From the NCBI GenBank assembly GCA_965223265.1, contig OZ244999.1, positions 7,968,001 through 8,032,000 of the forward strand: 64,000 bases of DNA, in the 5' to 3' direction. Source of the stretch: Planctomycetota bacterium. GTDB taxonomy: Bacteria; Planctomycetota; UBA8108; SXIK01. The notes below the pieces were generated by a model. That model did not search any database. It saw only the letters and a list, made by a program, of their open reading frames with translations, and had not been told where the DNA came from. The position numbers and the translations under genes are program-made. This document shows, one piece after another, positions 3,342-28,998 of this stretch; within the stretch, counting starts at the first letter, position 1; each line of letters opens with the position of its first letter.

Positions 3342-3366
3342 GTGTCAGCTGCTCATCGCTTCGTCG

Positions 3367-4482
3367 TCACTTCGATCCTTCGCGCAGACGTGGATCCGTC
3401 GCTTCCTGAAGGCCCTCGCCGATGAGGTTGTAGGCCAAGACCGTCGAGAAGATGGCTAAGCCGGGAAAGAGGATCAGCCACCACATCTGCAGATTGCTGC
3501 GCCCGGCGCTGAGGACGACGCCCCAGCTCGGATTCGGCGGCGGTGTTCCGAAGCCGAGAAAGCTCAGCCCGCTTTCGATGAGAATGGCCGCAGCGATGCC
3601 AAAGGCGATCGGCACGAGAACAGGCGCCATGGCGTTCGGCAGAATCTGGCGCACCATGATGCGGACGCGACTCATCCCGAGGGCGCGCGCTGCAGTGACG
3701 TATTCCATCGTCTTGAGCTTGAGAAACTCGGCGCGCACGAGGCGAGCGATCCCGGTCCAGCTCGTCATGCCGATGACTCCCATGACATGCCAAATGCTGG
3801 GGTCCTCAACGATGGCCAGTAGAGCCAGGATGAGAACGAGCGCCGGAATGCACATGACGACTTCGATGATGCGACTGACGACGACGTCGACCGAGCCGCC
3901 GAAATAGCCGGCGATGGCGCCTAGGGTGATGCCCACGACGCTGGCAATACCCATCGACACGAATCCAACCAAGAGCGCAATGCGCGTTCCATGGACCAGC
4001 TGCGCGAAGACGTCGATGCCGGCTTGATTGGTTCCGAGTGGGTTTAGCCGGCTCGGGGCGCCCTTGTCGAGCGAAGGGTTCCCCGGCCGGTCTTCCCATT
4101 CGCCTTTGCGGACGCGGCGGTACGGGTCTTGGTAGACGAGCGGCCAGATCGCCCAGCTCTCCGGGTCTTTCTTCTCGAGGTTTTGCGGATAGATGCGGCG
4201 GAACTCGTCGCGAAAAAAGACAGGGTTTTCCCAGCGTGGGTTGAAATAACCGAGCGCCGGAAAGTAGATGGACCCTTTGTACTTACAGATCACTGGTTTG
4301 GTGCCGACGATCGCCGGAGAGAGGAGCGCGACGAGCGAGAGAAACCCGACAAAGATGAGCGACGCCATGGCGAGCTTGCGGCGCCGAAAGCGTACCCATG
4401 TCTCGGCCCAAAAGCCACGGCTGCGGGTGAACCGCGTCGTCGCGGAGTCCTTGGTCTCTAACGTCGGCGGGGGTTCGTTCAT
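3367..4482 (-). CDS. Peptide ABC transporter permease (DppC/OppC type)
   Basis: LGT..G.D.FA.LVHG.RI.L, EAA-like loop EYVTAARALG, PSWG. Confidence 0.95.
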   Translation of the reverse strand: MNEPPPTLETKDSATTRFTRSRGFWAETWVRFRRRKLAMASLIFVGFLSLVALLSPAIVGTKPVICKYKGSIYFPALGYFNPRWENPVFFRDEFRRIYPQNLEKKDPESWAIWPLVYQDPYRRVRKGEWEDRPGNPSLDKGAPSRLNPLGTNQAGIDVFAQLVHGTRIALLVGFVSMGIASVVGITLGAIAGYFGGSVDVVVSRIIEVVMCIPALVLILALLAIVEDPSIWHVMGVIGMTSWTGIARLVRAEFLKLKTMEYVTAARALGMSRVRIMVRQILPNAMAPVLVPIAFGIAAAILIESGLSFLGFGTPPPNPSWGVVLSAGRSNLQMWWLILFPGLAIFSTVLAYNLIGEGLQEATDPRLREGSK

Positions 4483-4509
4483 TTCTGTGAAGGAAGCTGC
4501 CAGATATCG

Positions 4510-5502
4510 CTAAGTATAGCTAACGCGTGGGTCGACGACGCCGTAGAGCAGGTCGGCGATGAGCTGCGCCACGAGTGTCAGCATCGAAAACACCAGAGTC
4601 AGCCCCATGATTGTCGGGTAGTCGCGTCGCGTCAGCGACTCCAAAAAAAGTTGACCCATGCCCGGCCAACTGAAGATGAACTCGAGGATGATCGCGCCGC
4701 TGACAAGCGACGGCAGCGTCAAGCCGACCAGCGTCACAAATGGCACAAGGGTGTTGCGGAAGGCGTGGTGCCAGATCACCCGCGCCGGGCCAGCACCTTT
4801 GGCGCGAGCAGTACGGATGTAGTCTTGACGGATGACCTCCTCCATGTTCGCTTTGACGAAGCGTGAGAAGTAGGCGAGGCCACCGTAAGTGTAACAGACA
4901 AGCGGCAGCGCAAGGTGACGCAGTCGGTCGAACGCTTTGCCGACAAGCGAGAGCTCCTCGTAGTCCGAGCTGTAGAGTCCACCAGCGGGCAGTTGAAATC
5001 CCGTGCCCTCGAGCTTGACGTAGAAGAGGATCAACAAGAAGAGCGCCGCAACGTAGGATGGCAGAGAGTAGAGCATGTAGAGGATCACACTCAGAGCGCG
5101 CTCGTCGAAGCGTCCGCTGCGGACGGTGGCGAACAGCCCCATGGGGATGGACAGCAGGTACGTCAGAAAGAGCGACGCACCCGAGAGCAACAGCGTCGGA
5201 CCGATGTGATCGCTGATGATCTGAAGCACCGGCTGCTTGTAGGCGATCGAGTGTCCCATGTCGAGGCGCAGAAGATTTCCAAGCCAGACGAAGTAGGCTT
5301 GGTACCACGGTTTATCCAGTCCGTAGATCGCCTTTAGCCGCTCAAGATCCTCGGGACTGATCTGGCGACTGGGGTCGACCTCAGCCATGTCGAGCGTCAG
5401 CGCCGTTCCCGGCATGCTGCGGATGAGGCCGTAGATGACGAACGTGATCAGCAGGAGCGTCAGGCAGCCGATGGCGAGGCGCCGCAGAATGTAGATCAGC
5501 AT
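4510..5502 (-). CDS. Peptide ABC transporter permease (DppB/OppB type)
   Basis: YGLDKP..QY, DYIRTARAKG, IFSWPGMG, RDYP, DPR C-terminus. Confidence 0.95.
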   Translation of the reverse strand: MLIYILRRLAIGCLTLLLITFVIYGLIRSMPGTALTLDMAEVDPSRQISPEDLERLKAIYGLDKPWYQAYFVWLGNLLRLDMGHSIAYKQPVLQIISDHIGPTLLLSGASLFLTYLLSIPMGLFATVRSGRFDERALSVILYMLYSLPSYVAALFLLILFYVKLEGTGFQLPAGGLYSSDYEELSLVGKAFDRLRHLALPLVCYTYGGLAYFSRFVKANMEEVIRQDYIRTARAKGAGPARVIWHHAFRNTLVPFVTLVGLTLPSLVSGAIILEFIFSWPGMGQLFLESLTRRDYPTIMGLTLVFSMLTLVAQLIADLLYGVVDPRVSYT

Positions 5503-14655: not shown

Positions 14656-17600
14656 TTAGGGCGCGCGGAGATCGTGCTGCAGCATGAGCTCCGCAACGTG
14701 CTCCGGTTCAACGAAAAAGAGCGTTTCGTTGTCGACGCTGTCGAGCAGTTGTGGATCCCACACCCCGCTGCGCTCCGACACGGCGACTCTCAGGCTGTCC
14801 CAGCGGCCATCTACGGCTTGCAGCGCGCGCAGTCGGTCACTGAGCTGGCTCTGCGTCGCAAGCTCGAGGTGGAGGAGGACGATCTTGCCGCCGCTCCGCT
14901 CCTGGACGGCAGGAAGGATCACGATCGGTCGAGAGTCGGTCGCGCCGTAGCCGAGGAACAGTTTTCGGCTTTGGACGCTGCCCCATTTCGTGCCGCTGAG
15001 AGGTTGCGGTTCCTCACAGCGTGAGAGGATTTTCGCCGCGCAACCTTTCTTCTCGAGCACCCGCACCGTCGAGTCGGGCGTCGGACGACCGAGCGGGTCG
15101 AGTCCCTCGACGCTATAGAGTGTCGCGCCGGCAACGCGGTGCACCACCGGTGCGAAGGCGCTGAGAAAGTGGCGGTGCGAGACGGCGATTTCCGCCGCGT
15201 CGAGACCGAGCTCGTGGTAGGCGTCCCAGAGGACACCACCGATCTGTTCTTCGCCGCGAGAGATGCCCACGGTGACGGTCTTTGCTTGATGCTTGATGGC
15301 GTCGATCGGTCGAGCCAACTCTGCGATCGCTTCGGTGAGGTGCGCGATGACCGTTGCGGGTGCGCTTTCCTCCGTCAGCGGGAACGCGTTCAGTGGCATT
15401 CGTCCCAGGAGAAACGAAATCGCTTCTACGAGGCGCGCTGCGACACCGACGTTGAGCCCGCTGTCGATCTCCCCGGCGCGGAGAGCGCGGTCGAACTCGA
15501 GCAGCTCCTGCGTCGTGTGCGGCGGCAGGGCTCGCACCAGCTGCGACGGCGACTCTTGGCCCGGGTCGCGCTCGACCGCGCTGTCGACAAGCGCAGCGCG
15601 CACGCGCTTGAGAACGTCCGCGAAAGCGTCTAAAGCCCGCGCGGCGTGGAAGCCGAACAGATGGCCCACCATTGTCGCCAGCAGGTAGCTCAGCTCGCCG
15701 CGTTCCGCGGGCACCTTGATGCAGCCCGCGGCGTAGGGGTCGTATCGCGTCTCGCCCTCATCCGTGATCACGATCGGAATCGAACAATGTGCCTTGAAGA
15801 TCGCGACCTCTTTGACAACGTCGGAAATTGTCGCCTCGGGGATGCCGCTAGCGCAGACGAGCACCAGGGGTTCGGCGGAGAGATCGATGTGCTTTTTATC
15901 TTCAAGAAAATCGGACGCTATCGACTTGTAGCAGAGCTCGCTCAGCTTGATGCGGATCTCGTCCGCAGCGATCTTCGTGGCGCCGCTACCAACCACCGCC
16001 CAGTACCGTCGTGTGACGGCGAACTCGCGTGCTAAACGTTCGATTTGGCTGCTGAGCCCCAGCGTTCGCTGCATCGCTTCGGGCAGGTTCTGGAGGCTGC
16101 GAATCTCATCGGCGATGTCGCTGGCCGGCAGCGCGCCGAGGCGATCCGCGAGAGCCAGGGCGAGCACTTGGCCGGCGACGTTTTGGGCGTAGAACGCTTT
16201 GGTCGACGCCACCGACATTTCGATGTCGCGGCCGTCCGACGTGTAGAGGACGCCGTGGGACTTGTAGACCAGGTCGGAGTTGCGGCGATTGACGATCGCG
16301 ATCACCCAGCCGCCGCGCTCGCGCACCATATCCACCGTGCGGTTCGTATCCGTCGTCGTCCCTGACTGCGAAATGGCGACGATCAGCGAGTCGGAGAGGT
16401 CGTCGTTCATGTGATGACCGGAAAGCTCCGTGGCTTTCATCGCGCAGATTTCGAAACCTGGCTCGCTGGAGCGGAGTGCCCGGCGCAGCAGATGCGCGAC
16501 CCCTTGGCCGGCGACCGCGGCCGTGCCCTGGCCGATGACCACCACCCGGCGCACGCGGCCAGTGCGCATCGCTTCGAGTAGCTCGGCAGGCACAACGTCG
16601 TCACCCACCAGGCAGCGGGCCGTGCCTCCCTGAACTTCGAACTTGCCGCGGAGAGTTTTTCGCACCGTGTCGACGGACTCGGAAATCTCTTTGCTCAGAA
16701 AGTGCGTAAACTCGCCGCGGTTGATATCGCGTGTCGTGATTTCGGCGCGCCGAAATCGATTCTCCTCGAGCGGCGCGAACCCGGCGGAGGTTGACAGCGC
16801 CAGCGTTTCTCGTGCATTCGCCTCGGCGTGGACTTTGAAGATCTCGCCTCGTGGGGAGACCTCACCTTCCGCTTTGACGTAGTCTTGAGCCATCTCGACG
16901 ACGCCGTACATTTCCGAGGCGACGACGATGGCTGAGTCCCCGACGCCGAAGAAGAGTCCTTGACCACTGCCCTTCTGTGCGAAGAAGAACTCCCCTGGCC
17001 GATCCGCCGCCATGACTCCGATGGCCATGGAGCCTTCGAACTCGTCGAACGCGCGTTCGACGGCGACGGCGAGATCGCGGCACTCATCGTAGTGATGCTT
17101 GACGACAACGGGGATGATCTTGGCGTCTGTCGTGATGTGTTCGTCGAGTCGGGTGCCATGCTTCGAGCTGTAGGCGCGCAGGAGTTCCTGATAGTTGTCG
17201 ATGTCGCCGTTGAGCACAGCGACGATTTCGCCATCGCCGCGGACCTGTCCGTTCTCGGCGAGGGTGGCGCTGTCGACCGGATGGCAGTTTGGCTCAGAGA
17301 TCACTCCGTTCGATGCCCACCTGGTGTGAGCGAGACTTTGGATATCGACGTCAGGCTGGGCGAGGGCATGCTGAAACAGCGCATCCGTCTCGATCGCTTG
17401 TCGCAGGAAGGCGACGTTGTCTCCCATGCGGCCGATTTCGCGTGCCACCTTGAATGCAAAAAGCAGTGTGCGGTCGCTTGAGTCAGGCTGGACGACCGCC
17501 CCGTGGGTGAAGCGCGTCTGCTGCGTTCGAGCCTCGAGCATGTGGCGCCATGTGTCATCGTGAGCGGGGATGTCGCAGCGGCTGTCGAGGAAACGGCCTA

Positions 17601-18183
17601 AGGCTTCCGCCGTCGGAAAATGCACGTAGATGGAAATGCCCGCGGAGTCTCTGCCGCGCACCTCGAGTCGGTCGAGCCCGGAGAGGATCAGCTGGATTTG
17701 CCAGGCGTGGCGGAGAAGGCGCTCCTGCGTGGCGGCCGGGCCTGAGCTCACGAGACGTCGGACCTCATCAAAGTGGCCGAGGCAGTCCGACAGAATCTGC
17801 CACTCGATATCGCGACAGCCGATGACGACGCGGTTGACCAATTCCCAGTCGAGCCCGGCGGGCAGATTTCCGCCGCCTGCGAGCGACTCGAAGTCGTTCG
17901 CGGCGCGGCCGAAGCGCTCTGCGCAGTCCCTCAGTTGGTCTTGCAGTGACGGACTCTGCAAAGCCGCCAGAAACCCGTCACGCTGCACCCAGCGATAGGA
18001 GGCCACGCGCGTCGCCTCCAGCTTGGCATCGAGATCCGCGCCGTTGGTGCCAGTGGGAAGGTTCTCTTTCTCGGTCGCACGCGCAGCGCTATTCAAGAAC
18101 GTATCCGCAGCGGAGAAGAATTCCTCGTTCGCGGCGTGCTGCTCGTCGCTCTTCGACGAGACGAAACCGAAGATTCCACACAT
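14656..18183 (-). CDS. glmS: Enlarged glutamine-fructose-6-phosphate aminotransferase-like protein (GATase-2 + 2 SIS + extra domains)
   Basis: MCGIFG (Cys1), LEVRGRDSAG, HTRWA, NGDIDN, SQSGTT.DT, VASTKAF, AKTVTV; 1175 aa versus about 610 for canonical GlmS. Confidence 0.8.
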   Translation of the reverse strand: MCGIFGFVSSKSDEQHAANEEFFSAADTFLNSAARATEKENLPTGTNGADLDAKLEATRVASYRWVQRDGFLAALQSPSLQDQLRDCAERFGRAANDFESLAGGGNLPAGLDWELVNRVVIGCRDIEWQILSDCLGHFDEVRRLVSSGPAATQERLLRHAWQIQLILSGLDRLEVRGRDSAGISIYVHFPTAEALGRFLDSRCDIPAHDDTWRHMLEARTQQTRFTHGAVVQPDSSDRTLLFAFKVAREIGRMGDNVAFLRQAIETDALFQHALAQPDVDIQSLAHTRWASNGVISEPNCHPVDSATLAENGQVRGDGEIVAVLNGDIDNYQELLRAYSSKHGTRLDEHITTDAKIIPVVVKHHYDECRDLAVAVERAFDEFEGSMAIGVMAADRPGEFFFAQKGSGQGLFFGVGDSAIVVASEMYGVVEMAQDYVKAEGEVSPRGEIFKVHAEANARETLALSTSAGFAPLEENRFRRAEITTRDINRGEFTHFLSKEISESVDTVRKTLRGKFEVQGGTARCLVGDDVVPAELLEAMRTGRVRRVVVIGQGTAAVAGQGVAHLLRRALRSSEPGFEICAMKATELSGHHMNDDLSDSLIVAISQSGTTTDTNRTVDMVRERGGWVIAIVNRRNSDLVYKSHGVLYTSDGRDIEMSVASTKAFYAQNVAGQVLALALADRLGALPASDIADEIRSLQNLPEAMQRTLGLSSQIERLAREFAVTRRYWAVVGSGATKIAADEIRIKLSELCYKSIASDFLEDKKHIDLSAEPLVLVCASGIPEATISDVVKEVAIFKAHCSIPIVITDEGETRYDPYAAGCIKVPAERGELSYLLATMVGHLFGFHAARALDAFADVLKRVRAALVDSAVERDPGQESPSQLVRALPPHTTQELLEFDRALRAGEIDSGLNVGVAARLVEAISFLLGRMPLNAFPLTEESAPATVIAHLTEAIAELARPIDAIKHQAKTVTVGISRGEEQIGGVLWDAYHELGLDAAEIAVSHRHFLSAFAPVVHRVAGATLYSVEGLDPLGRPTPDSTVRVLEKKGCAAKILSRCEEPQPLSGTKWGSVQSRKLFLGYGATDSRPIVILPAVQERSGGKIVLLHLELATQSQLSDRLRALQAVDGRWDSLRVAVSERSGVWDPQLLDSVDNETLFFVEPEHVAELMLQHDLRAP

Positions 18184-18434: not shown

Positions 18435-19670
18435 TCATTTGGCGCTGGCGTCCGGACTGGCGGTGGCGTCTACGCCGCCGCGAAAGTCGATCAGTTCCGG
18501 AAAAGCGTTCGAGTCGAGGAGGGCGGTCGAATCTTTGGCACCTTTGAGAAAACGATCAAAAAACGCAATGCTGTAAGCGTTGATAACATCTTTAGCGTTC
18601 TTCGGCTTGGTGAAGTGCACTTCTCCTTTGTCGCTTTTCTCAACGCCGATCCCGTCTCCGAAGTTCGGGTTGATGGCTGCCATCTCGGTGAAGGAATAGT
18701 GTCCGCCTTCCCGCAGCGAGAGGAAGAAGCGCGGACCTGTCGCGGTGTTGTAGTACTGAGTCGACGCAGCGTTGCCGAACGGGCCGACCGTTCGATCGAG
18801 CCCGCCAACCATGACGAACACTGGAATCGTTGGCGGCGGGCCGACGGCCAGTGTCATCGCCAGGGACGCCTTCACGCGTGCGTCGTTCGGTAGCAGCTCA
18901 CAAACGGTCATGCCACCGAACGAGTGTCCGAGAACGCCGATGGCCTCGACGTCTACGGAATCATGCAGCCACTCTGCGCGCTCACGAGACCGCCGCAGGA
19001 GTTGATCGACCACAAACTTCACGTCCTGCGGTCGATCCAATCTCGAGCGCTGTCGGCCTTCCCCGTTGTACGGAAGATAGCGATCCTGAAGCACGGTTAC
19101 GCCGCAGTTGCCTGAATGATCGGGAGCCGCGACGATGTAGCCGTGGCTGGCGAGATGTTCGACTTGGAAGGTGTTCTGGTGGCGAAAACCACCGTTTCCG
19201 TGCGAGAAAACAAGAAGTGGATAACGCCCGGCTCGTCGGCGCGCGTCGCGGACCGCCGTGCAGACGAAACGTTTGTTCACTTCTTCGAGCTCGCCCTGGA
19301 ACCGCTTGACGATCTCGCGCGCTGCCTGCTCGTGACCGCGGAAGTAGTCCGTGAACTTGTTTGTCTCCGCGCCGTCGGCAACGATGGCGGGGTACCAGAT
19401 TTCTGTGACCAGCGTGCGGTGTCCACCTGTGTACGGGTCTTGGCGTCGAGTGTCGACCAGCTCGATCGTGCGCACGCCGACCGCGTAGGGTCCGGGCTTC
19501 GCCGCCTCGCCCAGCACACTGGCTGCCACAGGTGACGCAGCCGGGGGCGATTCGGCTTTCGGTTTATCCGGTGCCGCCTCCAAAACCGAGCAGACTGAGT
19601 TGGCTAGTACGAAAAGCAGTAACATCGAGGCGATCAATAGCGCCGGTGGTTGCGAGTCGTGAGGGCTCAT
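18435..19670 (-). CDS. Secreted alpha/beta hydrolase (PAF-acetylhydrolase/dienelactone hydrolase-like)
   Basis: Signal peptide, PGPYAVG, IWYPA, PLLVFSHG, LASHGYIV, GHSFGG, GGHYSF. Confidence 0.85.
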   Translation of the reverse strand: MSPHDSQPPALLIASMLLLFVLANSVCSVLEAAPDKPKAESPPAASPVAASVLGEAAKPGPYAVGVRTIELVDTRRQDPYTGGHRTLVTEIWYPAIVADGAETNKFTDYFRGHEQAAREIVKRFQGELEEVNKRFVCTAVRDARRRAGRYPLLVFSHGNGGFRHQNTFQVEHLASHGYIVAAPDHSGNCGVTVLQDRYLPYNGEGRQRSRLDRPQDVKFVVDQLLRRSRERAEWLHDSVDVEAIGVLGHSFGGMTVCELLPNDARVKASLAMTLAVGPPPTIPVFVMVGGLDRTVGPFGNAASTQYYNTATGPRFFLSLREGGHYSFTEMAAINPNFGDGIGVEKSDKGEVHFTKPKNAKDVINAYSIAFFDRFLKGAKDSTALLDSNAFPELIDFRGGVDATASPDASAK

Positions 19671-20725
19671 GTCGCTTCTTCCTTTTGCTGGCCGTCTCGT
19701 GAGACGCGAAGCACGAGGCGCCCGAGGACGCCTCCGCCGCGTAGTCGTTCGTGCGCGGTGTTGACTTCTTCGAGCGGCAGGACATCGGTGACGACCGACC
19801 GGATCTTGCCGGCGGCGGCGAGGTCAACGGCACGCTTGAGATCGCGCTTCGGCCCGCACCGCGAGCCGATGAGTTCGAGCTCGTTTTGGGCCAGCCGTTT
19901 GCCACTCAAGGAGTATTCGTCGGACGTGTAGCCGACCACTACCAGGCGGCCTCCGACCTGGAGCGAATCCACCGCGGCGCTGAGCGTGTCGCTCGTGCCG
20001 ACGATATCCAGCACGCACCTTGCGCCGGCGTCGCTTGTCAGGCGGCGGACCGCGGCCGCGACGTCTTCGGCGCCGGCGTCGATCGCTTCGTCGGCGCCAA
20101 GGGCGAGCGCGTGCGCCGATTTGGCGATGCCCTTTTCCACCGCGATAACGCGGGCGCCGGCTAGCTTAGCGAACTGCACCGCGAAGGAGCCGACGCCTCC
20201 AACGCCGATGACGACGACCGTTTCACCGAGTTTGATCCGCGCGCGGTCCACAGCGTGGAACGCTGTGATCCCGGCATCGCAAAGAACGGCCGCGTCTTCC
20301 CACGAGATGGTGTCAGGAAGGCGTACCAGCTGGCGCGCCGGAACGCACAAATACTCGGCATAGGCTCCTTGCCATCCCTTAACACCGACAACACCGTCCA
20401 GCTCGGGGCACAGTTGCTCGCGCTCGCTGCGGTAGTACGGGCTCTCAGGCGGCACCAAGAAGATGTACGGAATGACTCGATCACCCTCCGTGAACTCGAG
20501 CACATGATCGCCGACGGCCGCGACCACACCCGCAGGCTCGTGCCCCATGATGAATGGCAATCGCGGCGTGTATCCGAAGCCTTTGAGGAGTTTTAAGTCG
20601 GTTCCGTCGACACCGCACGCCATCACGCGCACGAGCACCTCATCCGCGCCAGGCGTTGGTGTCGGCACCTCCTCGATCGAGAGAGGTTGATCGAACTTGC
20701 GAAGAATTGCAGCTTTCAAGGTCAC
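19667..20725 (-). CDS. MDR-family (zinc-type) alcohol dehydrogenase
   Basis: GHE motif, GVGGVG Rossmann motif; 4-nt overlap with the hydrolase gene. Confidence 0.9.
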   Translation of the reverse strand: MTLKAAILRKFDQPLSIEEVPTPTPGADEVLVRVMACGVDGTDLKLLKGFGYTPRLPFIMGHEPAGVVAAVGDHVLEFTEGDRVIPYIFLVPPESPYYRSEREQLCPELDGVVGVKGWQGAYAEYLCVPARQLVRLPDTISWEDAAVLCDAGITAFHAVDRARIKLGETVVVIGVGGVGSFAVQFAKLAGARVIAVEKGIAKSAHALALGADEAIDAGAEDVAAAVRRLTSDAGARCVLDIVGTSDTLSAAVDSLQVGGRLVVVGYTSDEYSLSGKRLAQNELELIGSRCGPKRDLKRAVDLAAAGKIRSVVTDVLPLEEVNTAHERLRGGGVLGRLVLRVSRDGQQKEEAT

Positions 20726-20856
20726 GTTCCCGTACGGCGACCGGAGGGTTCGAATACTACGGTCGTCATCCTACCCGCCCACCCCGGGTCGATTCGATCA
20801 AGTTCACCCGCTTCGAGCTGCGCACCTGTCGCATAACGCCGAGCGCCGGCGCGAGA

Positions 20857-22224
20857 TCAATCCGATTCTCGATCCTGCGGCACGCCGCCGAGCTGCACCT
20901 TGATCTTTAGCGACTCATCGCCGCGTTTGACGTCGAGAATCACCTCGGTCCCGGGATACAGCGGCCCGAAGTAAGCCTGCAGCTCGCCGAACGACCGGAC
21001 GTGCATGCCGGAGAGACCGTGGATGACATCGTTCGGCTGGATTCCCGAGAGTGAAGCTGGTCCGCCCGGCTCGACGTTCGAGATGCGAACACCCGCCTCC
21101 GGTTGATCGTCCGAGTCGACGACGACTCCCAGCCACGGGTGATCGCTTTCAAAAAGCGCCGCGATGATTTCGATGCTGCGATCGCCGCGCTCGATTCGCA
21201 CCGGGATTTTTGTGCCGGCCGGATAGGTCCCCAGGACTCCGAGGTAACGATTGCGCGTGGTCACCTTCTCGCCTGCGATCCGGATGATGCGATCGCCGGC
21301 GACGAACCCGAAGCGCTCCGCGGCCGACCCGGCGGTGACCTTGACGATCGGCAGACCGTGGCGCTGGTTCGTTCGACGCATACCCACGCGCAGTCCATTG
21401 ATCTTACCGTGACGTACGAGACCACCTCCCGCACGTTTCAGAGGTTCTAAGAAGCGCTGCACTTGGTTGCTGGGGATGGCGTAACCGATTCCTGAATTGA
21501 TCCCGACGCCGTACGGGTTCTCGATTTTGCCGTTGATGCCGACGACCTTGCCGTCGAGGGTCAACAGGGGCCCGCCAGAGTTTCCAGGATTGACAGCAGC
21601 GTCGACCTGGATCGCGTCGGTGTACGCTTCGGAGTAGCGATGCAGCGCGCTGACGATTCCCGTCGAAGCTGCCGGTTCGTAGTCGGGCGGCGACTCCGGC
21701 AGAAAGAGTTCGCGTGAGCCGACAAGAAACGGATCGCCAAGCGCGATGACGCGATCGCCAACCTCGAGGGCGTCGGAGTCGCCGAACTCAAGTGCTGGGA
21801 CTCCGGGTTCACCGTCCAGTTTGAGCAGCGCGAGGTCGCCGCCGGGGAAGTGTCCGACGACGGTCGCCTGCATCTCACGACCACCTCGCAGTTGAACTTC
21901 GACCCGACCCACGAGGACGTTCGGATCTCCTTGCGAGACGACGTGCTCGTTCGTGAGAACGTAGCCCTCTTCCGAGATCACAAAACCGGAACCGCCCTGA
22001 ATGAAGACGAAGCTCTTCGCGGCGCGCTCGATCGTGGCGCGCATCTCCTCTTCTAGGCGACGCAGATCGCCCAGGTCGCCGATTTTCTGATCGCGCTCGA
22101 CCTCCACCGCTTGCAAGCATACGGTTGGTGGCGCGAGACAAGCCGGCGCCAGCAGCGCGGCGGCGTGCAACACCGCTACCCAGTAGCTCGCGGCGCGGCT
22201 TCGGATCGTGGTCGGCGGCGTCAC
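20857..22224 (-). CDS. HtrA/DegP-like serine protease with two PDZ domains (catalytic triad intact)
   Basis: LTNEHV (His), DLALL (Asp), NPGNSGGPL (Ser), two PDZ-like segments, signal peptide. Confidence 0.92.
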   Translation of the reverse strand: MTPPTTIRSRAASYWVAVLHAAALLAPACLAPPTVCLQAVEVERDQKIGDLGDLRRLEEEMRATIERAAKSFVFIQGGSGFVISEEGYVLTNEHVVSQGDPNVLVGRVEVQLRGGREMQATVVGHFPGGDLALLKLDGEPGVPALEFGDSDALEVGDRVIALGDPFLVGSRELFLPESPPDYEPAASTGIVSALHRYSEAYTDAIQVDAAVNPGNSGGPLLTLDGKVVGINGKIENPYGVGINSGIGYAIPSNQVQRFLEPLKRAGGGLVRHGKINGLRVGMRRTNQRHGLPIVKVTAGSAAERFGFVAGDRIIRIAGEKVTTRNRYLGVLGTYPAGTKIPVRIERGDRSIEIIAALFESDHPWLGVVVDSDDQPEAGVRISNVEPGGPASLSGIQPNDVIHGLSGMHVRSFGELQAYFGPLYPGTEVILDVKRGDESLKIKVQLGGVPQDRESD

Positions 22225-23249
22225 GGTTTCTCTCCTAAGGCGATTTCCAGCTCGAGGATTTTTTCCTGTCGCTTCACCTTGACCTGCACGACGTCGCCCA
22301 CTTCGTGGGCTAGGACCAGTGCTTTCAGATGGTAGAAGTCCCTCACCGCCTCGCCGTTGATTTCGAGAAGGATGTCATCGGCGATGACGCCAGCCTTTGC
22401 CGCCGCACCGCCTTCGACGACCCGCCCGACGTGCGAGCCCTCCGGGACCTCCTTGCCGATCGAGATGACGCCGAGCATAGGGGGTTTGATGTTCTTTCCT
22501 TCGCGCAAGCGCGGCAGAATCCGCCGCAAAGTCTTCACGGTCGTACCGAATCCGACGCCGGAGTTGATGCCCCATTGGGGTTGGTGATGACCGACAAAGC
22601 AAGCGATGCCGACGAGCCGCCCCTCCAGGTCGATCAACGGTCCGCCGACGTTTCCGTAGTTGAGCTTGGCGTCGGTCTGGAACGCTCGGCCAGCGTTGCG
22701 CCCGAGCGCGCTCACGATGCCTCGCGTCACGGTGGTGCTGCGGGGATCCGGCGAGCGGCCGACCGCGAACACGATTTGTCCGGCCCCGAGACCCTTGGAG
22801 TCGCGCCATGGTTCGAACGACGTGGGCTCTTGCGCGTCGCCCGGCAGCTGTTTCGCTCGCAACAGCGCGACATCGTCCTGTGCACTCACGGCCAGCACCT
22901 CGGCGCTCGAGGTTTCGCCGCTTGCGAACGTCACACTGAGAGACTCGAGCTCTCCGACGACGTTGTAGAAACTCGTCAGGATGTGCCCGCCACCATCGAT
23001 GATGAAGCCGGTGACCGGGCCGTCGGGTCGGCGAAAGTAAGACCGTGCCTCGCCGCCGCCGAGAACCTCGCCGATGCGCGCGGCGGGCAGATCGGTGCCC
23101 TCCCTTCGCTCGATCTGAATCGAAACGACCCGCTGCTCGACGCCGGCCAGAAGCTCAGCGACGCTGGTCGGGGCATCAATGGGAGTACCGAAAGTCGGGT
23201 GCAGTGGGAGTAGAACCCCGACTAGGGTGAGCGTCAGTATCTTCCCCAA
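22221..23249 (-). CDS. HtrA-like trypsin+PDZ protein, predicted inactive
   Basis: LTSFYNV (no His), NYGNVGGPL (Ser to Val), one PDZ, signal peptide. Confidence 0.85.
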   Translation of the reverse strand: MGKILTLTLVGVLLPLHPTFGTPIDAPTSVAELLAGVEQRVVSIQIERREGTDLPAARIGEVLGGGEARSYFRRPDGPVTGFIIDGGGHILTSFYNVVGELESLSVTFASGETSSAEVLAVSAQDDVALLRAKQLPGDAQEPTSFEPWRDSKGLGAGQIVFAVGRSPDPRSTTVTRGIVSALGRNAGRAFQTDAKLNYGNVGGPLIDLEGRLVGIACFVGHHQPQWGINSGVGFGTTVKTLRRILPRLREGKNIKPPMLGVISIGKEVPEGSHVGRVVEGGAAAKAGVIADDILLEINGEAVRDFYHLKALVLAHEVGDVVQVKVKRQEKILELEIALGEKP

Positions 23250-24358
23250 AGTTGAATCTCCATGCTGCGCTCTTCTTCGTTCCGTTTCAGCTTGAGCGTC
23301 AGTTTGTCTCCAGGTTTCTTGCCGCCGAAGATTGTGCGGAACTCCTGCGTCGACGTGACTCTTCGATCGTCCGCCTGCTGGATCACGTCGCCTGGCTCAA
23401 GCCCGGCGCGCGATGCAGGACTGTCCGGAACAATCCTAGTGACTCTGACGCCGAGTTTTTCCTCGGCCGCCAGCTCGACCCCTAGATAGCTCAGTGAGTC
23501 GTTTTTGCTCTCCTGATCAAACCTCTTGTCGCCGCTGGCAGCCAGTAGGCTTGGCTTGAGGATGTCGACCGGCACCGCAGCTGCCAGCCAACGGTTCGGT
23601 GAGTAGTTGAGAGTGATCACGCCGAGCAGCTCGCCGCGTGCGCTCACCAAGGGTCCACCGTCCATGCCGTTGTTGACTGGAGCGCTCGTTTCGATGACAC
23701 GGCCGATGTACGTCGACTCTCCTTGCGTCTCGCGAAGGGAGAAGAGACCGCTGATGACTCCCGCCGACATGGCAGCCTGGTCGTCCTTTTGAATGCACTC
23801 GAACGCGTTGCCGAGGGTGTAGACCGGCGCGCCGAGAGCGATGGCGGTGGAATTCCCCAAGCTGAGGTAAGGCAGGTCGCCGCCGCCTTCTCCGGAGCGC
23901 TCGACTCGCAGCAAGGAGAACTCAGTTGCCGATTTGGTTTCGATCAGTTTGGCGCTGACGACTTGTCCACCTTGTAGATAGACGCGAATGCGGCGCGCCT
24001 TTCCGGGGACCACGGTTGTCGAGGTGAGGACCAGGCCCTCTGGTGACACAACCGTTCCAGTGCCGAAGAAAGAGAACTCAGAGCCGCCTGTCCCCGGGGC
24101 GCGGCAGGTGACACCGACGACTGCTGGCGACACATAGGCGTAAACTCGCACGGCCGGCGAACGCTCCGCGGCCGGGAGAGCGTCACGAGCATGGACTATG
24201 ACGGCGAGAACGAGCGCGGCGAGCACGTGGAGCCGCCGGCGCCGGCGAGAGATCAGCGTTTGGCGAGCGATCTTGATGGCGCACTGTCCTTTCTTGCGTC
24301 GCGACTGCCGCAGCGCGAGGTGCGCATTCATCCTGAAGTCTGATGGCTTCGGCGTCAA
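23234..24358 (-). CDS. HtrA-like trypsin+PDZ protein, predicted inactive (start may be ATG 24331 or later)
   Basis: LTSTTVV (no His), TEFSLL, NNGMDGGPL (Ser to Asp), one PDZ. Confidence 0.85.
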   Translation of the reverse strand: MTPKPSDFRMNAHLALRQSRRKKGQCAIKIARQTLISRRRRRLHVLAALVLAVIVHARDALPAAERSPAVRVYAYVSPAVVGVTCRAPGTGGSEFSFFGTGTVVSPEGLVLTSTTVVPGKARRIRVYLQGGQVVSAKLIETKSATEFSLLRVERSGEGGGDLPYLSLGNSTAIALGAPVYTLGNAFECIQKDDQAAMSAGVISGLFSLRETQGESTYIGRVIETSAPVNNGMDGGPLVSARGELLGVITLNYSPNRWLAAAVPVDILKPSLLAASGDKRFDQESKNDSLSYLGVELAAEEKLGVRVTRIVPDSPASRAGLEPGDVIQQADDRRVTSTQEFRTIFGGKKPGDKLTLKLKRNEEERSMEIQLWGRY

Positions 24359-24662
24359 CCAGACAGGGGCCGGCGGCCTCGGCTATCTCGCAGCTCGATG
24401 GGGGTCCACATGCACGGTGAGCGGCGACAGTGCGCTGTGTTGGGGGCGATCATCGGTCGGATGATTTCGATCCGAACCGACGCCGCGAGGGGGTTTGGAC
24501 CCCTGTCGAAGCTGGTAGGCTGGAAGGTCGTCGCGAAGACGCGCGCCGTCACGACATCGGCGACGCACAGGCGACGACATTAACCGGATGTGGGACGGCC
24601 GATTTTTCCGTGTGATCGGGCGTCCTTCGCCCCACTTGGTGCAGCGGTGTGCGATCGCGAGG

Positions 24663-24678
24663 TGGCACGGCGATTGCA
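24663..24678 (+). promoter_or_regulatory. Sigma-54 (-24/-12) promoter, consensus match
   Basis: TGGCACGGCGATTGCA matches TGGCACG-N4-TTGCW exactly, within a 1.1-kb intergenic region. Confidence 0.6.
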
Positions 24679-25220
24679 GACTCAACGGCAGCGTTAGCTT
24701 TCGACCGACATTCTGATCCGCTGAGCCACTGGGGCCTGGCGGAACGGCCCAAGCCGCGGGCGGGAATCGGGCCACTTGTTCTCGTCCGTGGCGTCTACCG
24801 ATTCGTGATACCCAGACCATGCGTGAAACCGCGAAACGCGCCGGCGACCTGAAACCCGCCGATCCGTCGCCCGTCCGCGAGGCCGATGGTAAGGACGCTG
24901 TGCAGCCGGATCTCGAGCCGCAGGAGCCTGAGGCCCCGAGTCTCAAACCGCAAGACCTCGAGCCTGAAAACGAGAGAGAATCGGCGTTGCCGACGACGCG
25001 GCGAGCGCGTTCATCCGGTCAACCTCGGCGACCCGCAGGATGATCTTCTCGCCACGAACCTTCGGCTTCGGGCTGTCTGCGTGCCTGCGGAGCATTTGCG
25101 AGCGCACTCGCCGGAACTCGTTCGATCGGTTCGACGTAACCGACAACGGACCCGAGTCGGCCCTCGGCAATTTGTCCCTCGAGGCCGTACGTTCGCGCAA
25201 GGGATCCGAAGCAGCCACCC

Positions 25221-25270
25221 TTTTAGGATGTTATTCATCCGAAAATATCTGCCACTAAGATGCAGAATAT
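25221..25270. promoter_or_regulatory. Tandem AT-rich palindromes, candidate enhancer (UAS) sites
   Basis: TTTTAGGATG-N5-CATCCGAAAA followed by ATATCTGC..GCAGAATAT; about 70-120 bp upstream of the predicted sigma-54 start site. Confidence 0.4.
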
Positions 25271-25314
25271 CCGAACCGGCGCGTCTCGCACTCGGAAACG
25301 GTCCGCTGAGCGTA

Positions 25315-25330
25315 TGGCCCCGAAGTTGCA
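25315..25330 (+). promoter_or_regulatory. Sigma-54 (-24/-12) promoter upstream of the 25449 gene cluster
   Basis: TGGCCCCGAAGTTGCA, GG-N10-GC with TTGCA; about 120 nt before the ATG. Confidence 0.6.
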
Positions 25331-25448
25331 TATTTCGCGACGCTTCGGGCGAGACCCAGCGGTCGCGCAGGGACGGCGATAACGGAGTCGACGGCGGTGG
25401 CGACGCAGCGCGAGGCTCTTCCGGAGTTCGTCGTAGGAGGACGAAGAT

Positions 25449-26219
25449 ATGCGGCGCCTTGTATCAATTACGCACTTCCCGTGTCTCGTCATGCTTCTTT
25501 GGGTCGTCGGCGTCACGCCGACGTCGAGCGCCGAGGACGCGCCGGCGACCGCGACGATAAAGAACGATCCTTACTGCGTGGTCCAGATCGGCAGCGACGC
25601 AGTCGAGATCGTCCGCAAGTCGGAGCTTCCCGCGCTCAAGAAGAAGGTGGCGGAGGCGAACAAGCAGGCGCTGAAAGCCTACTCGGAAGCCCGGAAAGCA
25701 GCGAAACGAGCGAAAGAGAAATTCTCCGCGGCGAGGCCTCGAGCGAAGAAGGTGAAGGTACTCTCGGCGTCACTTAAGACCGAGTCGGAGGCGAAAAAGC
25801 TCCGCGATGCGACCCTCGCGAAGGTCAATGGATACGTGGTCGTTCTGGCTGGTCTCGAGCTCCACGTCCTGCGAAAGTCAGAGGTCTTCGATCTCAAGAA
25901 GGACCTCAAGCAGCGAGACGACGACGCGGTCGCGTCGTACAAATCCGCGCAGGCCGCCGCGAAGCAGAGTGGTGAGAAGTTCAAGCGGAAGAAGCCGACC
26001 CAAACGAGGGTGAAAGTCCTGGCTTCGGGTTTCCGGACAGAAACCGACGCGGCGCGTAAGGCCGAGGCGCTGCTCGAGAAGAACAGGAAGCTCAAACCCT
26101 CCGAGGGCCTCGAGCGCGTTCTCGAGTCCGACGGCGACCGTGCGGACAGTCGCGAAGAGGGCGAGGAGGATCAAGACGAAGAGGATGAAGAAACCTCGCC
26201 TGGAGAGAACGGTGAGTAG
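25449..26219 (+). CDS. Hypothetical exported Lys-rich protein with two tandem ~80-aa repeats and acidic tail
   Basis: AGGAGG RBS, signal-like N-terminus, repeat Y.VV..G.....RKSE...LKK.......Y..A..AAK...EKF....P....VKVL.....TE..A. Confidence 0.8.
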   Translation: MRRLVSITHFPCLVMLLWVVGVTPTSSAEDAPATATIKNDPYCVVQIGSDAVEIVRKSELPALKKKVAEANKQALKAYSEARKAAKRAKEKFSAARPRAKKVKVLSASLKTESEAKKLRDATLAKVNGYVVVLAGLELHVLRKSEVFDLKKDLKQRDDDAVASYKSAQAAAKQSGEKFKRKKPTQTRVKVLASGFRTETDAARKAEALLEKNRKLKPSEGLERVLESDGDRADSREEGEEDQDEEDEETSPGENGE

Positions 26220-26282: not shown

Positions 26283-27119
26283 ATGAGCACCACTTCTTCA
26301 CCAGCTCCAGCGATGTTCACTGACGCAGGTGCTGAACCCCTCGTCGCGGTGGCGCTCCACGACGGTCATCAAGTGCGCGACGCGCTCGTCGAGCACCTCG
26401 CGGTCCACGCTGCGGCGCGCTTTCGGGAGGAGGATCCGTTCACGCGGGAATGGACGACCGTTGCCTCTACGCGCATCGTGGGTCTTCGATCCCGTTTCGA
26501 AGTGGACCTCAACCGTCCGCGAGACAAGGCCGTGTACCTGACGCCCGAAGCGTCGTGGGGGCTTCGGGTGTGGAGCAGGGAGTGCCCGTCGGACGAGGTG
26601 GAACAGTCGCTCGCCCAGTATGACGAGTTCTACAGGAGAGCTGGCGAGCTCTTTACCGCGATGGCGTCGATTCACGACCGTTTCGTCGTCTTCGACCTCC
26701 ACTCCTACAATCACCGTCGGAACGGCTTCGACGCGCTTCCCGCGCCAGCGAACGAGCACCCCGAAGTCAATCTCGGCACGGCGACGATGGACCGCGAGTT
26801 ATGGGCTCCTGTGGTCGATCGCTTCGTCGCGGAGCTGCGCTCCCGGCCGTTCATGGGCAGGCGAATCGATGTTCGCGAGAACGTCAAGTTTTTCGGTGGA
26901 CACTTCGCCCGATGGGCGCACGAGAATTTCGCCGAAAGCGCATGCGTCCTCTCTATTGAATTCAAAAAGATGTTCATGGACGAGTGGACCGGTGAACCCT
27001 ATCCTGACCACATTGAAGCGGCACGCGACGCGCTCGCCCGCGCCATCCCCGGAGTACTCCAGGAACTCGACCGAATTGACGCATCGCGAGCGCCAGGGAC
27101 TTCCCACTACAACGGTTGA
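26283..27119 (+). CDS. N-formylglutamate amidohydrolase family protein
   Basis: ALHDGH, REEDPFT, SRFEVDLNR, DLHSYNHRR, NLGT, ENVKFFGG, IEFKK.FMDEWTG. Confidence 0.88.
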   Translation: MSTTSSPAPAMFTDAGAEPLVAVALHDGHQVRDALVEHLAVHAAARFREEDPFTREWTTVASTRIVGLRSRFEVDLNRPRDKAVYLTPEASWGLRVWSRECPSDEVEQSLAQYDEFYRRAGELFTAMASIHDRFVVFDLHSYNHRRNGFDALPAPANEHPEVNLGTATMDRELWAPVVDRFVAELRSRPFMGRRIDVRENVKFFGGHFARWAHENFAESACVLSIEFKKMFMDEWTGEPYPDHIEAARDALARAIPGVLQELDRIDASRAPGTSHYNG

Positions 27120-28998
27120 CGGGGCCATCGAGACGATCCGCTCCGGCCTGGCGAACGGCGTTCCCGTGCGCTGTCGTCTTCCTGAAAAGGGCGTGCTCGT
27201 CATCGATCGACCGCTTCCTTTCCTCGTCGTGCACCGAGTGCCACCGGCGAATGACGATCGAGGAACGGATCGGCTGATTCGATCGGAGGCGTCGTACCTC
27301 GTTGCCCCCGGAGACCGCTCGCACCATCGGTGGGTGTCTCGCCTCGTCCGAGAGGTCGTGCGAGAGCTCGCATCACAATTCGACGGGTGTCTCCTCGTCG
27401 AGCTGTGGTCAGATCCGACGGGCGATGCGTCTTCCAACGCATCGAAAGATCTCCCCCTGGAATTCCAGATCAAGGTCGCCTCCTCCCTCGCCCGGAATCG
27501 CGAAACGTGGTCGGTGCTCGAGCAAGCGTTCGGCAAAATTCGCGTCCTGCAGAGGCGAGCGATCGTGACGACCTCGGCAACCGCTCGCATCACTTCTGGG
27601 AAGTGCGCACCGCTCCTCACTGCGCGCCAGGCGGCGGATCTCTCGTGTACGGTCGCGGGAGTGGTCGTGCCGCCCGTCTACCGCGCGCCGGGCACCGATG
27701 AAGTCTACCCCCTCGTCCTGCGGACGCTTCGTCGCCAGCTTTCGCGCGCTCTGAAGCGCGGCTTTCATCAGTTCTGCCACGAGTCGACGCGCACGGCACC
27801 CGCGAGCTTCCTCGCTCTGGGTCGCCGTGGATTTCTGCGCGCTGTCGTCGACGTCGACGAACAAGTCGCGAAAGTGAGCGACTCTTTCGATTTCCTCCTC
27901 AGCGTCACCCCGGTCGATGTGAACGCGGTGTGGCGCAAGTTCGATCGAGAGCATTTCGAGGTCGAGCCGAAGTTTACCTATCGCCCGCTCTCGCAAGATC
28001 CGGTGCGCCTCAAGCGAAAGCTGTTCGAGATTCCGACCGAACGGATAGAAGACCCTGTTCTCGAGGGGATCTACCGAGAGAAACAACTCGAGCTTGACCG
28101 AAAGCTGACAATGCTCCTTGAGAGGTCGACGTCGAAGTTCCTCTACAGCAGCATTCAACTCTTCGAGGCGCCGAGCCCGGAGCTGGTCCTGCTGGCGCAG
28201 GAGATCCTGCGGTCGATTCCTCCCAAGAGCCGCGATGAGAACAAACGAGAATCCCTCGAAGCCGAGCCCTTTGCTGCTGCGGCGCGAAAGGAGATCGATC
28301 AATACCGGAGCCGAGTGCCCGAAATGAGCTCGAAGGTCGAGGTCCGCCCCGACCTCGCCTCGACGATCATGGTCTCGAAAGGAAACCTGCTCATCGGCGG
28401 AAGCGCGCGAGTGCCGGTTTCGCGGGTCGCGGCCCTGCTCCAACACGAAGTTGGCACCCACGTTGTGACCTACATCAACGGAAAGGCCCAACCGCTCCGT
28501 ATGTTCTACGGAGGTTTCGTCGGATACGACGAGCTCCAGGAAGGGCTCGCCGTTCTCGCCGAGTACCTCGTCGGTGGAATGAGTCGGCCGCGACTCAGAA
28601 CGCTCGCCGCTCGCGTCGTTGCTGGACACTACCTGGTCGATGGTGCCTCGTTTGTTGAGGCGTTTCGAGCGTTGAACCACGAACACCGCATCCCGCAGCG
28701 ACAATCGTTCGACATCGCGGTACGAATGTACCGCGGCGGGGGCTTCCTCAAGGACATCGTCTACTTGCGCGGATTTCAGAGCGTGCTCGAGTACATTACG
28801 AGCGGCGGGGACCTCGAACCTTTGTTCGTCGGCAAGATCGCACTGCGCCACCTGCCGGTAGTTCGAGAGCTGCAGCTCCGAGGAGTCTTGCGAGAGACGC
28901 CGCTTCGACCCAGTTTTTTGGATCTTCCACAGGCCGATAAGAGACTCGGGCGCCTCCGCTCGAGCGGCTCGGTGCTCGACCTTATCCAGACGATTTGA
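27076..28998 (+). CDS. QEGLA-motif / DUF1704 zinc metallopeptidase (MATCAP-like gluzincin)
   Basis: LLQHEVGTH (HExxxH), LQEGLAVLAE, R.YRGGG..KD.VYLRG. Start placed at TTG 27076; the ORF track extends the frame to 26620, over the previous gene. Confidence 0.88.
   Translation: MTHRERQGLPTTTVDGAIETIRSGLANGVPVRCRLPEKGVLVIDRPLPFLVVHRVPPANDDRGTDRLIRSEASYLVAPGDRSHHRWVSRLVREVVRELASQFDGCLLVELWSDPTGDASSNASKDLPLEFQIKVASSLARNRETWSVLEQAFGKIRVLQRRAIVTTSATARITSGKCAPLLTARQAADLSCTVAGVVVPPVYRAPGTDEVYPLVLRTLRRQLSRALKRGFHQFCHESTRTAPASFLALGRRGFLRAVVDVDEQVAKVSDSFDFLLSVTPVDVNAVWRKFDREHFEVEPKFTYRPLSQDPVRLKRKLFEIPTERIEDPVLEGIYREKQLELDRKLTMLLERSTSKFLYSSIQLFEAPSPELVLLAQEILRSIPPKSRDENKRESLEAEPFAAAARKEIDQYRSRVPEMSSKVEVRPDLASTIMVSKGNLLIGGSARVPVSRVAALLQHEVGTHVVTYINGKAQPLRMFYGGFVGYDELQEGLAVLAEYLVGGMSRPRLRTLAARVVAGHYLVDGASFVEAFRALNHEHRIPQRQSFDIAVRMYRGGGFLKDIVYLRGFQSVLEYITSGGDLEPLFVGKIALRHLPVVRELQLRGVLRETPLRPSFLDLPQADKRLGRLRSSGSVLDLIQTI

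Follow-up and report, generated by a model that had tools for sequence, protein, structure and literature searches.

Two pseudo-proteases and one active protease in a conserved HtrA gene module of Planctomycetota point to a mixed-subunit enzyme

Introduction

HtrA quality-control proteases are a textbook example of allostery between identical subunits. In the present study, we analysed a 64,000-nucleotide (nt) stretch of a Planctomycetota genome (contig OZ244999.1 of assembly GCA_965223265.1; hereafter the window) that carries three overlapping HtrA-like genes, designated A, B and C, of which only C retains a catalytic triad. The A-B-C trio recurs in genomes sampled across this phylum, which suggests a protease built from mixed subunits, a type so far undescribed in the HtrA family. 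In the reading that we consider best (probability of roughly 0.6), the three proteins would be subunits of one obligate hetero-oligomeric HtrA, most likely a mixed 1:1:1 trimer, an assembly that we infer from sequence comparison.

Gene organisation and catalytic positions

The three open reading frames (ORFs) are arranged in tandem on the minus strand, between positions 20857 and 24358 of the window. Their features are as follows (lengths in amino acids, aa).

23234..24358, minus strand: gene A, HtrA-like pseudo-protease, predicted to be exported, trypsin-like domain and one PDZ domain; 374 aa when read from TTG
23234..23249, minus strand: A/B overlap of 16 nt; the stop codon of A (TGA) lies within B, past the TTG start of B
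22221..23249, minus strand: gene B, HtrA-like pseudo-protease, predicted to be exported, trypsin-like domain and one PDZ domain; 342 aa, TTG start
22221..22224, minus strand: B/C overlap of 4 nt (GTGA), holding the stop codon of B and the GTG start of C
20857..22224, minus strand: gene C, HtrA protease, predicted to be exported, complete triad and two PDZ domains; 455 aa, GTG start
24014..24016, minus strand: codon ACC of A, Thr115, at the position of the catalytic His (alignment and codon check)
23660..23662, minus strand: codon GAC of A, Asp233, at the position of the catalytic Ser (Asp in 40/48 A-class domains)
22965..22967, minus strand: codon TAC of B, Tyr95, at the position of the catalytic His (alignment and codon check)
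22647..22649, minus strand: codon GTC of B, Val201, at the position of the catalytic Ser (alignment and codon check)
21577..21579, minus strand: codon TCT of C, Ser216, catalytic nucleophile of GNSGGPL (DegP alignment and codon check)

The true start of gene A is likely to be the ATG at 24331, as in the database gene call P0001 (365 aa). Both overlaps, which an earlier note on this DNA had described, were read directly from the sequence, and the identical 16-nt A/B overlap was also found in loci L024, L026, L028, L030 and L031. The motif AGGAGA is placed 6 nt upstream of the GTG start of C. A promoter and terminator scan of positions 20400-25500 returned 0 promoter-like and 2 terminator-like sites, numbers that do not exceed those of shuffled sequences, with a consensus that may not fit this phylum.

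Pfam searches matched all three proteins to Trypsin and PDZ families only, well over the cut-off: Trypsin_2 (2.4e-21) and PDZ_2 (1.5e-17, residues 291-370) in A, Trypsin_2 (3.1e-23) and PDZ_2 (1.5e-11, residues 271-338) in B, and Trypsin_2 (PF13365, 1.1e-31) with two PDZ stretches in C. The trypsin-plus-PDZ architecture given by the earlier note was thus recovered for each gene, and the second PDZ domain of C is an addition to that account. A hydrophobic N-terminal stretch, likewise reported there, is visible in each of the three translations. None of the proteins reaches the cut-off (416.2 bits) of the NCBIfam family TIGR02037 (Do family serine endopeptidase), the scores being 130.8 bits for A, 158.7 for B and 251.2 for C.

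Catalytic positions were assigned by aligning C to the solved structure of Escherichia coli DegP (3mh5_A, E value 8.4e-42), followed by a three-way alignment of A, B and C and a check of the codons. The motifs TNEHVV, GDLALL and GNSGGPL of C stand opposite the triad motifs of DegP, which gives C the full triad H94/D130/S216 (LTNEHVV, GDLALL, GNSGGPL). The corresponding positions are T115/E146/D233 in A (LTSTTVV, TEFSLL, GMDGGPL) and Y95/D126/V201 in B (LTSFYNV, DDVALL, GNVGGPL). All the motifs on which the earlier note had based its distinction between two dead copies and a live one (TSTTV/GMDGG, TSFYN/GNVGG and TNEH/D/GNSGG) are present, and only C keeps the triad. Gene C is therefore predicted to encode the sole catalytic subunit of the three, and the products of A and B are best regarded as HtrA family homologues that are not peptidases. 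The host genome, a single contig of 9.18 Mb, has nine Trypsin_2 matches, and all six outside the cluster have H/D/S at the triad positions; the dead copies are therefore specific to the A-B-C cluster.

Conservation of the inactive sites

When the 20 genomes from the three closest families were searched with A as the query, 19 of them yielded a match with an E value of at most 1.7e-58, the exception being G013, a genome that is 79% complete. We took 18 of these 19 loci as the order-level set (in G012, which was left out, the contig ends just past A). A second set of 20 loci from 18 genomes, scored with class profiles, represents the phylum level.

Analysis of the order-level alignment revealed Thr/Ser-Glu-Asp at the triad positions in 18/18 A rows, Tyr-Asp-Val/Thr in 19/19 B rows and His-Asp-Ser in 21/21 C rows. 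In the wider tally (48 A, 46 B and 43 C domains, including L078, a duplicate of L061), complete triads were found in 0/48 A-class and 0/46 B-class domains, and His, Asp and Ser were present in 43/43 C-class domains. The His position is Thr in 33 and Ser in 10 of the A-class domains, the Asp position is Glu in 39 and the Ser position is Asp in 40. In class B the His position is occupied by Tyr (25 domains) or Phe (15), and Asp is retained in all 46. Each B domain lacks His or Ser; ten have Ser but no His and one has His but no Ser. Six further loci agree with this distribution (complete triads in A 0/6, B 0/6 and C 6/6; L089 duplicates L066). The orthologues of the dead copies are thus not usually active, an outcome that the earlier note had named as damaging to its proposal, and the conservation of both the triplet and the dead residues that it had suggested checking across Planctomycetota was upheld in the sampled loci. 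The dead residues of L092 and L093 are very divergent (S/K/F or S/K/Y in A, W/G/Y in B).

The constancy of the replacements in A (Thr/Ser in 43/48, Glu in 39/48 and Asp in 40/48 domains), together with a remodelled L2 region that carries a conserved R-W/F-L-G-T-A-x-P motif, could mean that A is not dead and that its Thr/Ser-Glu-Asp set serves unusual catalysis or the binding of a metal or ligand. The HtrA-like protein MamO is described as an example of this fold having acquired metal binding (PMC4794232). However, the T-E-D set is not universal, as in the earliest-branching A lineages (L066, L067, L084 and L085) the Asp position is occupied by Gly and the Ser position by Tyr or Phe. No chymotrypsin-fold enzyme is known to have Thr/Ser-Glu-Asp at the triad positions, and we consider such a function of A improbable.

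Selection was assessed with pairwise ratios of non-synonymous to synonymous substitution (dN/dS; NG86 method) for 11 genome pairs and three genes. All 33 estimates fall between 0.12 and 0.51, every one of them below 1, which demonstrates that A, B and C are under purifying selection. For the six pairs with a synonymous distance (dS) below 0.6, the values are 0.13-0.40 for A, 0.13-0.28 for B and 0.14-0.21 for C; given these similarly low ranges, the dead copies are as constrained as the live C.

In a quick maximum-likelihood tree of 67 rows, which left out near-duplicate rows of one genus and two fragments of the C gene of L058, the 22 A, 21 B and 19 C sequences each formed one clade (support of 99, 99 and 98, respectively, in the Shimodaira-Hasegawa-like approximate likelihood ratio test, SH-aLRT), and the other paralogues of the host genome fell outside these clades. 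A more careful tree of 51 rows (16 loci from across the phylum plus three paralogues) gave clade supports of 100/99, 100/98 and 98/97 for A, B and C. Since each class forms a single clade, the triplication is older than the spread of the sampled lineages.

Loss of the catalytic residues would also be expected if A and B were pseudogenes decaying after tandem duplication, and in one metagenome-assembled genome (MAG) the A orthologue is in two pieces. Frames are intact at essentially all loci, however, and this explanation was rejected on the grounds of the dN/dS range, the conserved replacements at the triad positions and the deep, separate clades of the 51-row tree; we consider it extremely improbable. 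Selection rather than decay, as the earlier note had proposed from the intact frames, is also what the dN/dS values and the three old clades indicate. The two pieces in question are ORFs of 152 and 190 aa (L036:3741-4835), and may reflect either a pseudogene or an assembly error.

Linkage and distribution of the module

The order A-B-C was observed in 18/18 order-level loci. The A/B junction is an overlap or a gap of at most 4 nt in 14 of 17 of these loci (one was uninformative, and coordinates were judged by reading), and two gaps, of 49 and 827 nt, were recorded. The longer one, in L037 (2483-3311), differs from the overlaps or few bases seen in other loci. At the B/C junction, a gap of at most 19 nt or an overlap of at most 35 nt was found in 14/18 loci; in the other four the longest ORF of C overshoots.

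A pattern scan with one genome per species identified 27 loci, in records titled Planctomycetota, Planctomycetia, Planctomycetes, or 'uncultured bacterium' or 'bacterium' MAGs. The A profile matched 52 of 301 sampled genomes of the phylum at E values of at most 5.9e-53 (hand count), this threshold being the weakest verified score; matches at 1e-30 include ordinary HtrAs and were left uncounted. Several single-contig genomes of the sample carry the module, among them G048, G104 and G170. In 17 of the 20 phylum-level loci the three classes sit next to one another; of the other three, L071 is cut by a contig end, and L069 and L087 (described below) lack adjacent partners. Six later loci comprised three further A-B-C sets, two C-A-B loci and a single chain (L088). 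The dead copies are thus linked to the live one, contrary to the second outcome that the earlier note had named as damaging. One genome (G274) carries three whole modules within about 35 kb of one contig (L072, L073 and L074), two of them unfused and one with A and B fused.

Five genomes of the same class without an A orthologue also lacked a C-class gene (5/5): their best E values with the C profile were 2.1e-49, 1.7e-41, 1.4e-40 and 3.0e-38, with no match in the fifth, as compared with 8.7e-99 or better in three module-bearing genomes. This suggests, for a small sample, that C does not serve as a general housekeeping HtrA with A and B merely as its neighbours. Taken together, residues, substitution rates, trees and linkage lead us to regard the dead copies as ancient, selected and tied to the live copy.

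Gene fusions

In many lineages A, without its PDZ domain, is fused to B, giving proteins of about 550-660 aa with one N-terminal hydrophobic stretch. According to the class profiles, such an A-B fusion followed by C is present in L039, L040, L060-L063, L074, L079-L083 and L086. The PDZ domain of A is missing from every fusion, and that of B is kept in all cases except L088. At this locus (2144-5005, minus strand) a single chain of 954 aa contains all three protease domains (A, B and C) and, after them, two PDZ domains. The locus is free of N, and the B-C joint removes the PDZ domain of B, so the chain is not a simple read-through. The same genome also carries an ordinary A-B fusion.

An AlphaFold2 model of a natural A-B fusion (551 residues, 12-row alignment) had a mean predicted local distance difference test score (pLDDT) of 82.1 and a predicted template modelling score (pTM) of 0.78, from which the relative placement of the domains in the model can be considered confident. 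A fold search with this model returned single HtrA chains only (DegS 4rqy_A with an E value of 1.5e-22, DegQ and MucD); these matches confirm HtrA folds and carry no information on the arrangement between domains.

The fusions bear on the idea that A and B act on their own, as non-catalytic chaperones, holdases or regulators, with only an operon in common with C and no joint assembly. There is a precedent, in that MamO is reported to activate its paralogue MamE without a detected physical contact (PMC4794232), and loci L069 and L087 lack adjacent partners. Stand-alone proteins do not readily account for the constant gene order and close coupling seen throughout the phylum, for the covalent A-B and A-B-C fusions, or for the joint absence of A and C in the 5/5 genomes tested, and no other neighbour is conserved. 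We therefore consider this reading unlikely, if less so than a catalytic or binding function of A.

Activation motifs and ring order

According to a 2024 review of HtrA proteases (PMC11642142), a peptide bound to one PDZ domain of DegS or DegP activates its own and the adjacent protease domain; an activation cluster links the Arg in loop L3 of one subunit with the neighbour's LD loop, a contact through which the adjacent subunit is activated in DegS, and substrates of DegP span the active site of one protomer and PDZ1 of the next. We mapped the corresponding motifs by alignment to DegP and then by regular expressions for each class (11 A, 7 B and 4 C sequences were unplaced), with the following results.

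Class A: sensor-loop Arg in 5/36, LD motif G[ND][PA][FY] in 23/36, Glu at the Gln position in 34/36
Class B: sensor-loop Arg in 38/38, LD motif G[ND][PA][FY] in 0/38, Gln kept
Class C: sensor-loop Arg in 34/38, LD motif G[ND][PA][FY] in 34/38, Gln position mostly Gln

Gene B of the window conforms to its class: the Arg of its sensor loop (in SALGR) and the Gln (in FQTDA) are present, and the NPF motif of the LD loop is absent. If the subunits are arranged in a ring in the order B->C->A->B, the B->C interface, which would feed the live site, retains both donor and acceptor, and A->B, which would feed a dead site, is the only interface with neither. The class pattern thus fits a fixed ring B->C->A.

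The main alternative is that A, B and C associate as layered homotrimers (A3, B3 and C3) and not as a mixed ring. Deg5/Deg8 complexes, built from homotrimers, offer a precedent, as does DEG7, whose degenerated protease domain is described as the one through which it trimerises (PMC3194040). This arrangement would also be compatible with the A-B and A-B-C fusions and with the high pTM obtained for the fusion model. The motif pattern, on the other hand, is difficult to reconcile with A and B forming homotrimers only: class B retains the Arg throughout and has lost the LD motif, class A is mostly the reverse, and such constraint would be unexpected in dead homotrimers. In addition, three protease domains in one chain, as in L088, are most simply viewed as a pseudo-trimer. 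Layered homotrimers thus appear to be a minority possibility, although the strongest of the alternatives.

Several observations weigh against a mixed trimer, or narrow what can be drawn from the data above. Locus L069 carries A alone on a 6-kb contig, and L087 is an A-B fusion without an adjacent C, the best C-class gene being about 1 Mb away. The order is C-A-B in L092 and L093, from two genomes of one family. The single chain of L088 is a singleton (a one-member cluster) in a collection of 5.8 billion proteins, its nearest relatives being A-B fusions, and it was therefore weighted modestly. The fused state requires no fewer than four changes on the A tree, only one of which is imposed by well-supported branches; the fusions may represent one event rather than many, and they are as compatible with layered homotrimers as with a mixed ring. 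The motif counts come from regular expressions, and some A sequences have Arg or Lys two residues past the canonical Arg. Finally, gene C lies under the Do subfamily cut-off (251 vs 416 bits).

Proposed mechanism

Cooperation of A, B and C is supported by the A-B and A-B-C fusions, by their shared presence or absence and by the reciprocal loss of motifs. In the model that we favour, the mixed trimer, the three proteins would form one periplasmic HtrA machine in which only C cuts. The translationally coupled operon would supply equal amounts of A, B and C, and the ancient pseudo-protease subunits A and B would have been retained for non-catalytic roles. The most likely architecture would be a 1:1:1 trimer whose subunits follow one another in a fixed cycle. 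In this ring B, through its PDZ domain and its sensor-loop Arg and Gln, may sense ligands and switch on the neighbouring C via the intact LD, L1 and L2 loops of the latter, and A may close the ring as a scaffold or a substrate-holding subunit. The parts of this model that we infer are the physical association of the subunits and their ratio, the order around the ring, the direction in which the allosteric signal passes and the cellular substrates.

A trimer with one active site is biochemically plausible, since HtrA2 heterotrimers engineered to have only one active site are reported to stay fully active through PDZ signalling in trans (bioRxiv 10.1101/2021.10.04.462974). The full proposal, of a first natural HtrA whose basic trimer consists of three paralogues, with a B sensor that trans-activates C and an A subunit that closes the ring, present across the phylum and hard-wired more than once by fusion, is put forward tentatively, at slightly worse than even odds.

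Comparison with known systems

The three proteins resemble DegP, DegQ and DegS (MEROPS family S1C) in their trypsin-like and PDZ domains and their putative export signal, and C also in its GNSGGPL and TNxHV motifs. The known members of that group are homo-oligomers, whereas here three diverged paralogues, two of them without the triad, occupy a fixed operon. A literature search, with most subscription journals and supplements outside its scope, found no published description of a dead-dead-live HtrA operon, and the words 'heterotrimer' and 'hetero-oligomer' do not occur in the accessible text of the 2024 review (PMC11642142).

The closest bacterial precedent is the pair MamO/MamE, in which the dead HtrA MamO is needed to activate its HtrA paralogue MamE, and retained dead HtrA copies are stated to have evolved repeatedly (PMC4794232). 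MamO is reported to act via a di-His metal site and a transporter domain of the TauE type, with no physical contact between MamO and MamE detected (PMC4794232). In contrast, the A-B-C system has no TauE domain and comprises two dead paralogues, each with a PDZ domain or fused next to one; these are fused to each other and once to the active one. The cut-off of the NCBIfam MamO profile NF040961 is 800 bits, and the scores obtained with it were 36.1 and 24.4 bits.

The Deg5/Deg8 complex of Arabidopsis is, like the proposed trimer, a natural hetero-oligomeric HtrA complex, with 1:1 stoichiometry; it differs in being assembled from homotrimers of two partners, neither of which is described as inactive in the text available, and in its location in the thylakoid lumen (PMC4877387). 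Plant DEG7 combines an active protease domain with a degenerated one that serves assembly within one chain, but is reported to be a homotrimer with one domain of each kind and four PDZ domains per chain (PMC3194040). The A-B and A-B-C fusions of relatives are comparable to DEG7, with another order and number of domains. The A-B-C system differs from DEG7 in having two degenerated classes of separate origin, in its separate genes (in most lineages and in the window) and in being bacterial. Outside plants, yeast Nma111 is a tandem HtrA of the DEG7 type. Rings that mix active and inactive paralogues are known from ClpP1/ClpP2/ClpR and from the beta subunits of the proteasome; these have unrelated folds, depend on ATP and form 7-fold rings, unlike A-B-C.

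Neighbouring genes

The following genes flank the cluster in the window.

14656-18183, minus strand: 1175-aa protein that combines glutamine amidotransferase and SIS domains
18435-19670, minus strand: 411-aa predicted exported alpha/beta hydrolase (PAF-AH_p_II, 1.7e-17)
19667-20725, minus strand: Zn-dependent alcohol dehydrogenase gene, between C and the hydrolase gene and overlapping the start of the latter by 4 nt
25449-26219, plus strand: 256-aa protein rich in Lys, Glu and Ala, with a hydrophobic N-terminus and two similar halves; no Pfam match
26283-27119, plus strand: gene of the N-formylglutamate amidohydrolase family
26620-28998, plus strand: strong match to the MATCAP (microtubule-associated tyrosine carboxypeptidase) domain (1.4e-89)

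The PAF-AH-like hydrolase was rejected as a part of the system: it follows C in 14/27 pattern-scan loci and in 0/20 phylum-level loci. Pfam analysis of 15 downstream neighbours at phylum-level loci yielded unrelated families and no conserved partner. We consider the three HtrA genes to be a self-contained module. The amidotransferase/SIS protein is far longer than ordinary GlmS-type enzymes, and its gene is conserved further downstream in 6/27 pattern-scan loci. The gene for the Lys/Glu/Ala-rich protein is divergently oriented and lies about 1.1 kb upstream of gene A. The longest ORFs of the amidohydrolase and MATCAP genes overlap by about 500 nt in different frames, and the MATCAP gene probably starts later.

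Significance

Planctomycetota have already been noted for their many PDZ proteases; the survey of microbial PDZ proteins concerned reports many copies in planctomycetes, and the word 'inactive' is not used in its accessible text (PMC6411480). The A-class proteins found here bear the public names 'S1-C subfamily serine protease', 'serine protease' or 'hypothetical protein', and 'serine protease' labels on dead copies inflate protease counts in this phylum. The contributions of individual HtrA protomers have so far had to be probed with artificial heterotrimers (PMC9852955; bioRxiv 10.1101/2021.10.04.462974). If the proposed mixed trimer is correct, evolution would have split sensing, scaffolding and cutting onto three separate subunits, so that the logic of activation between subunits would become directly testable, and HtrA would be added to the few proteases in which live and dead subunits are combined.

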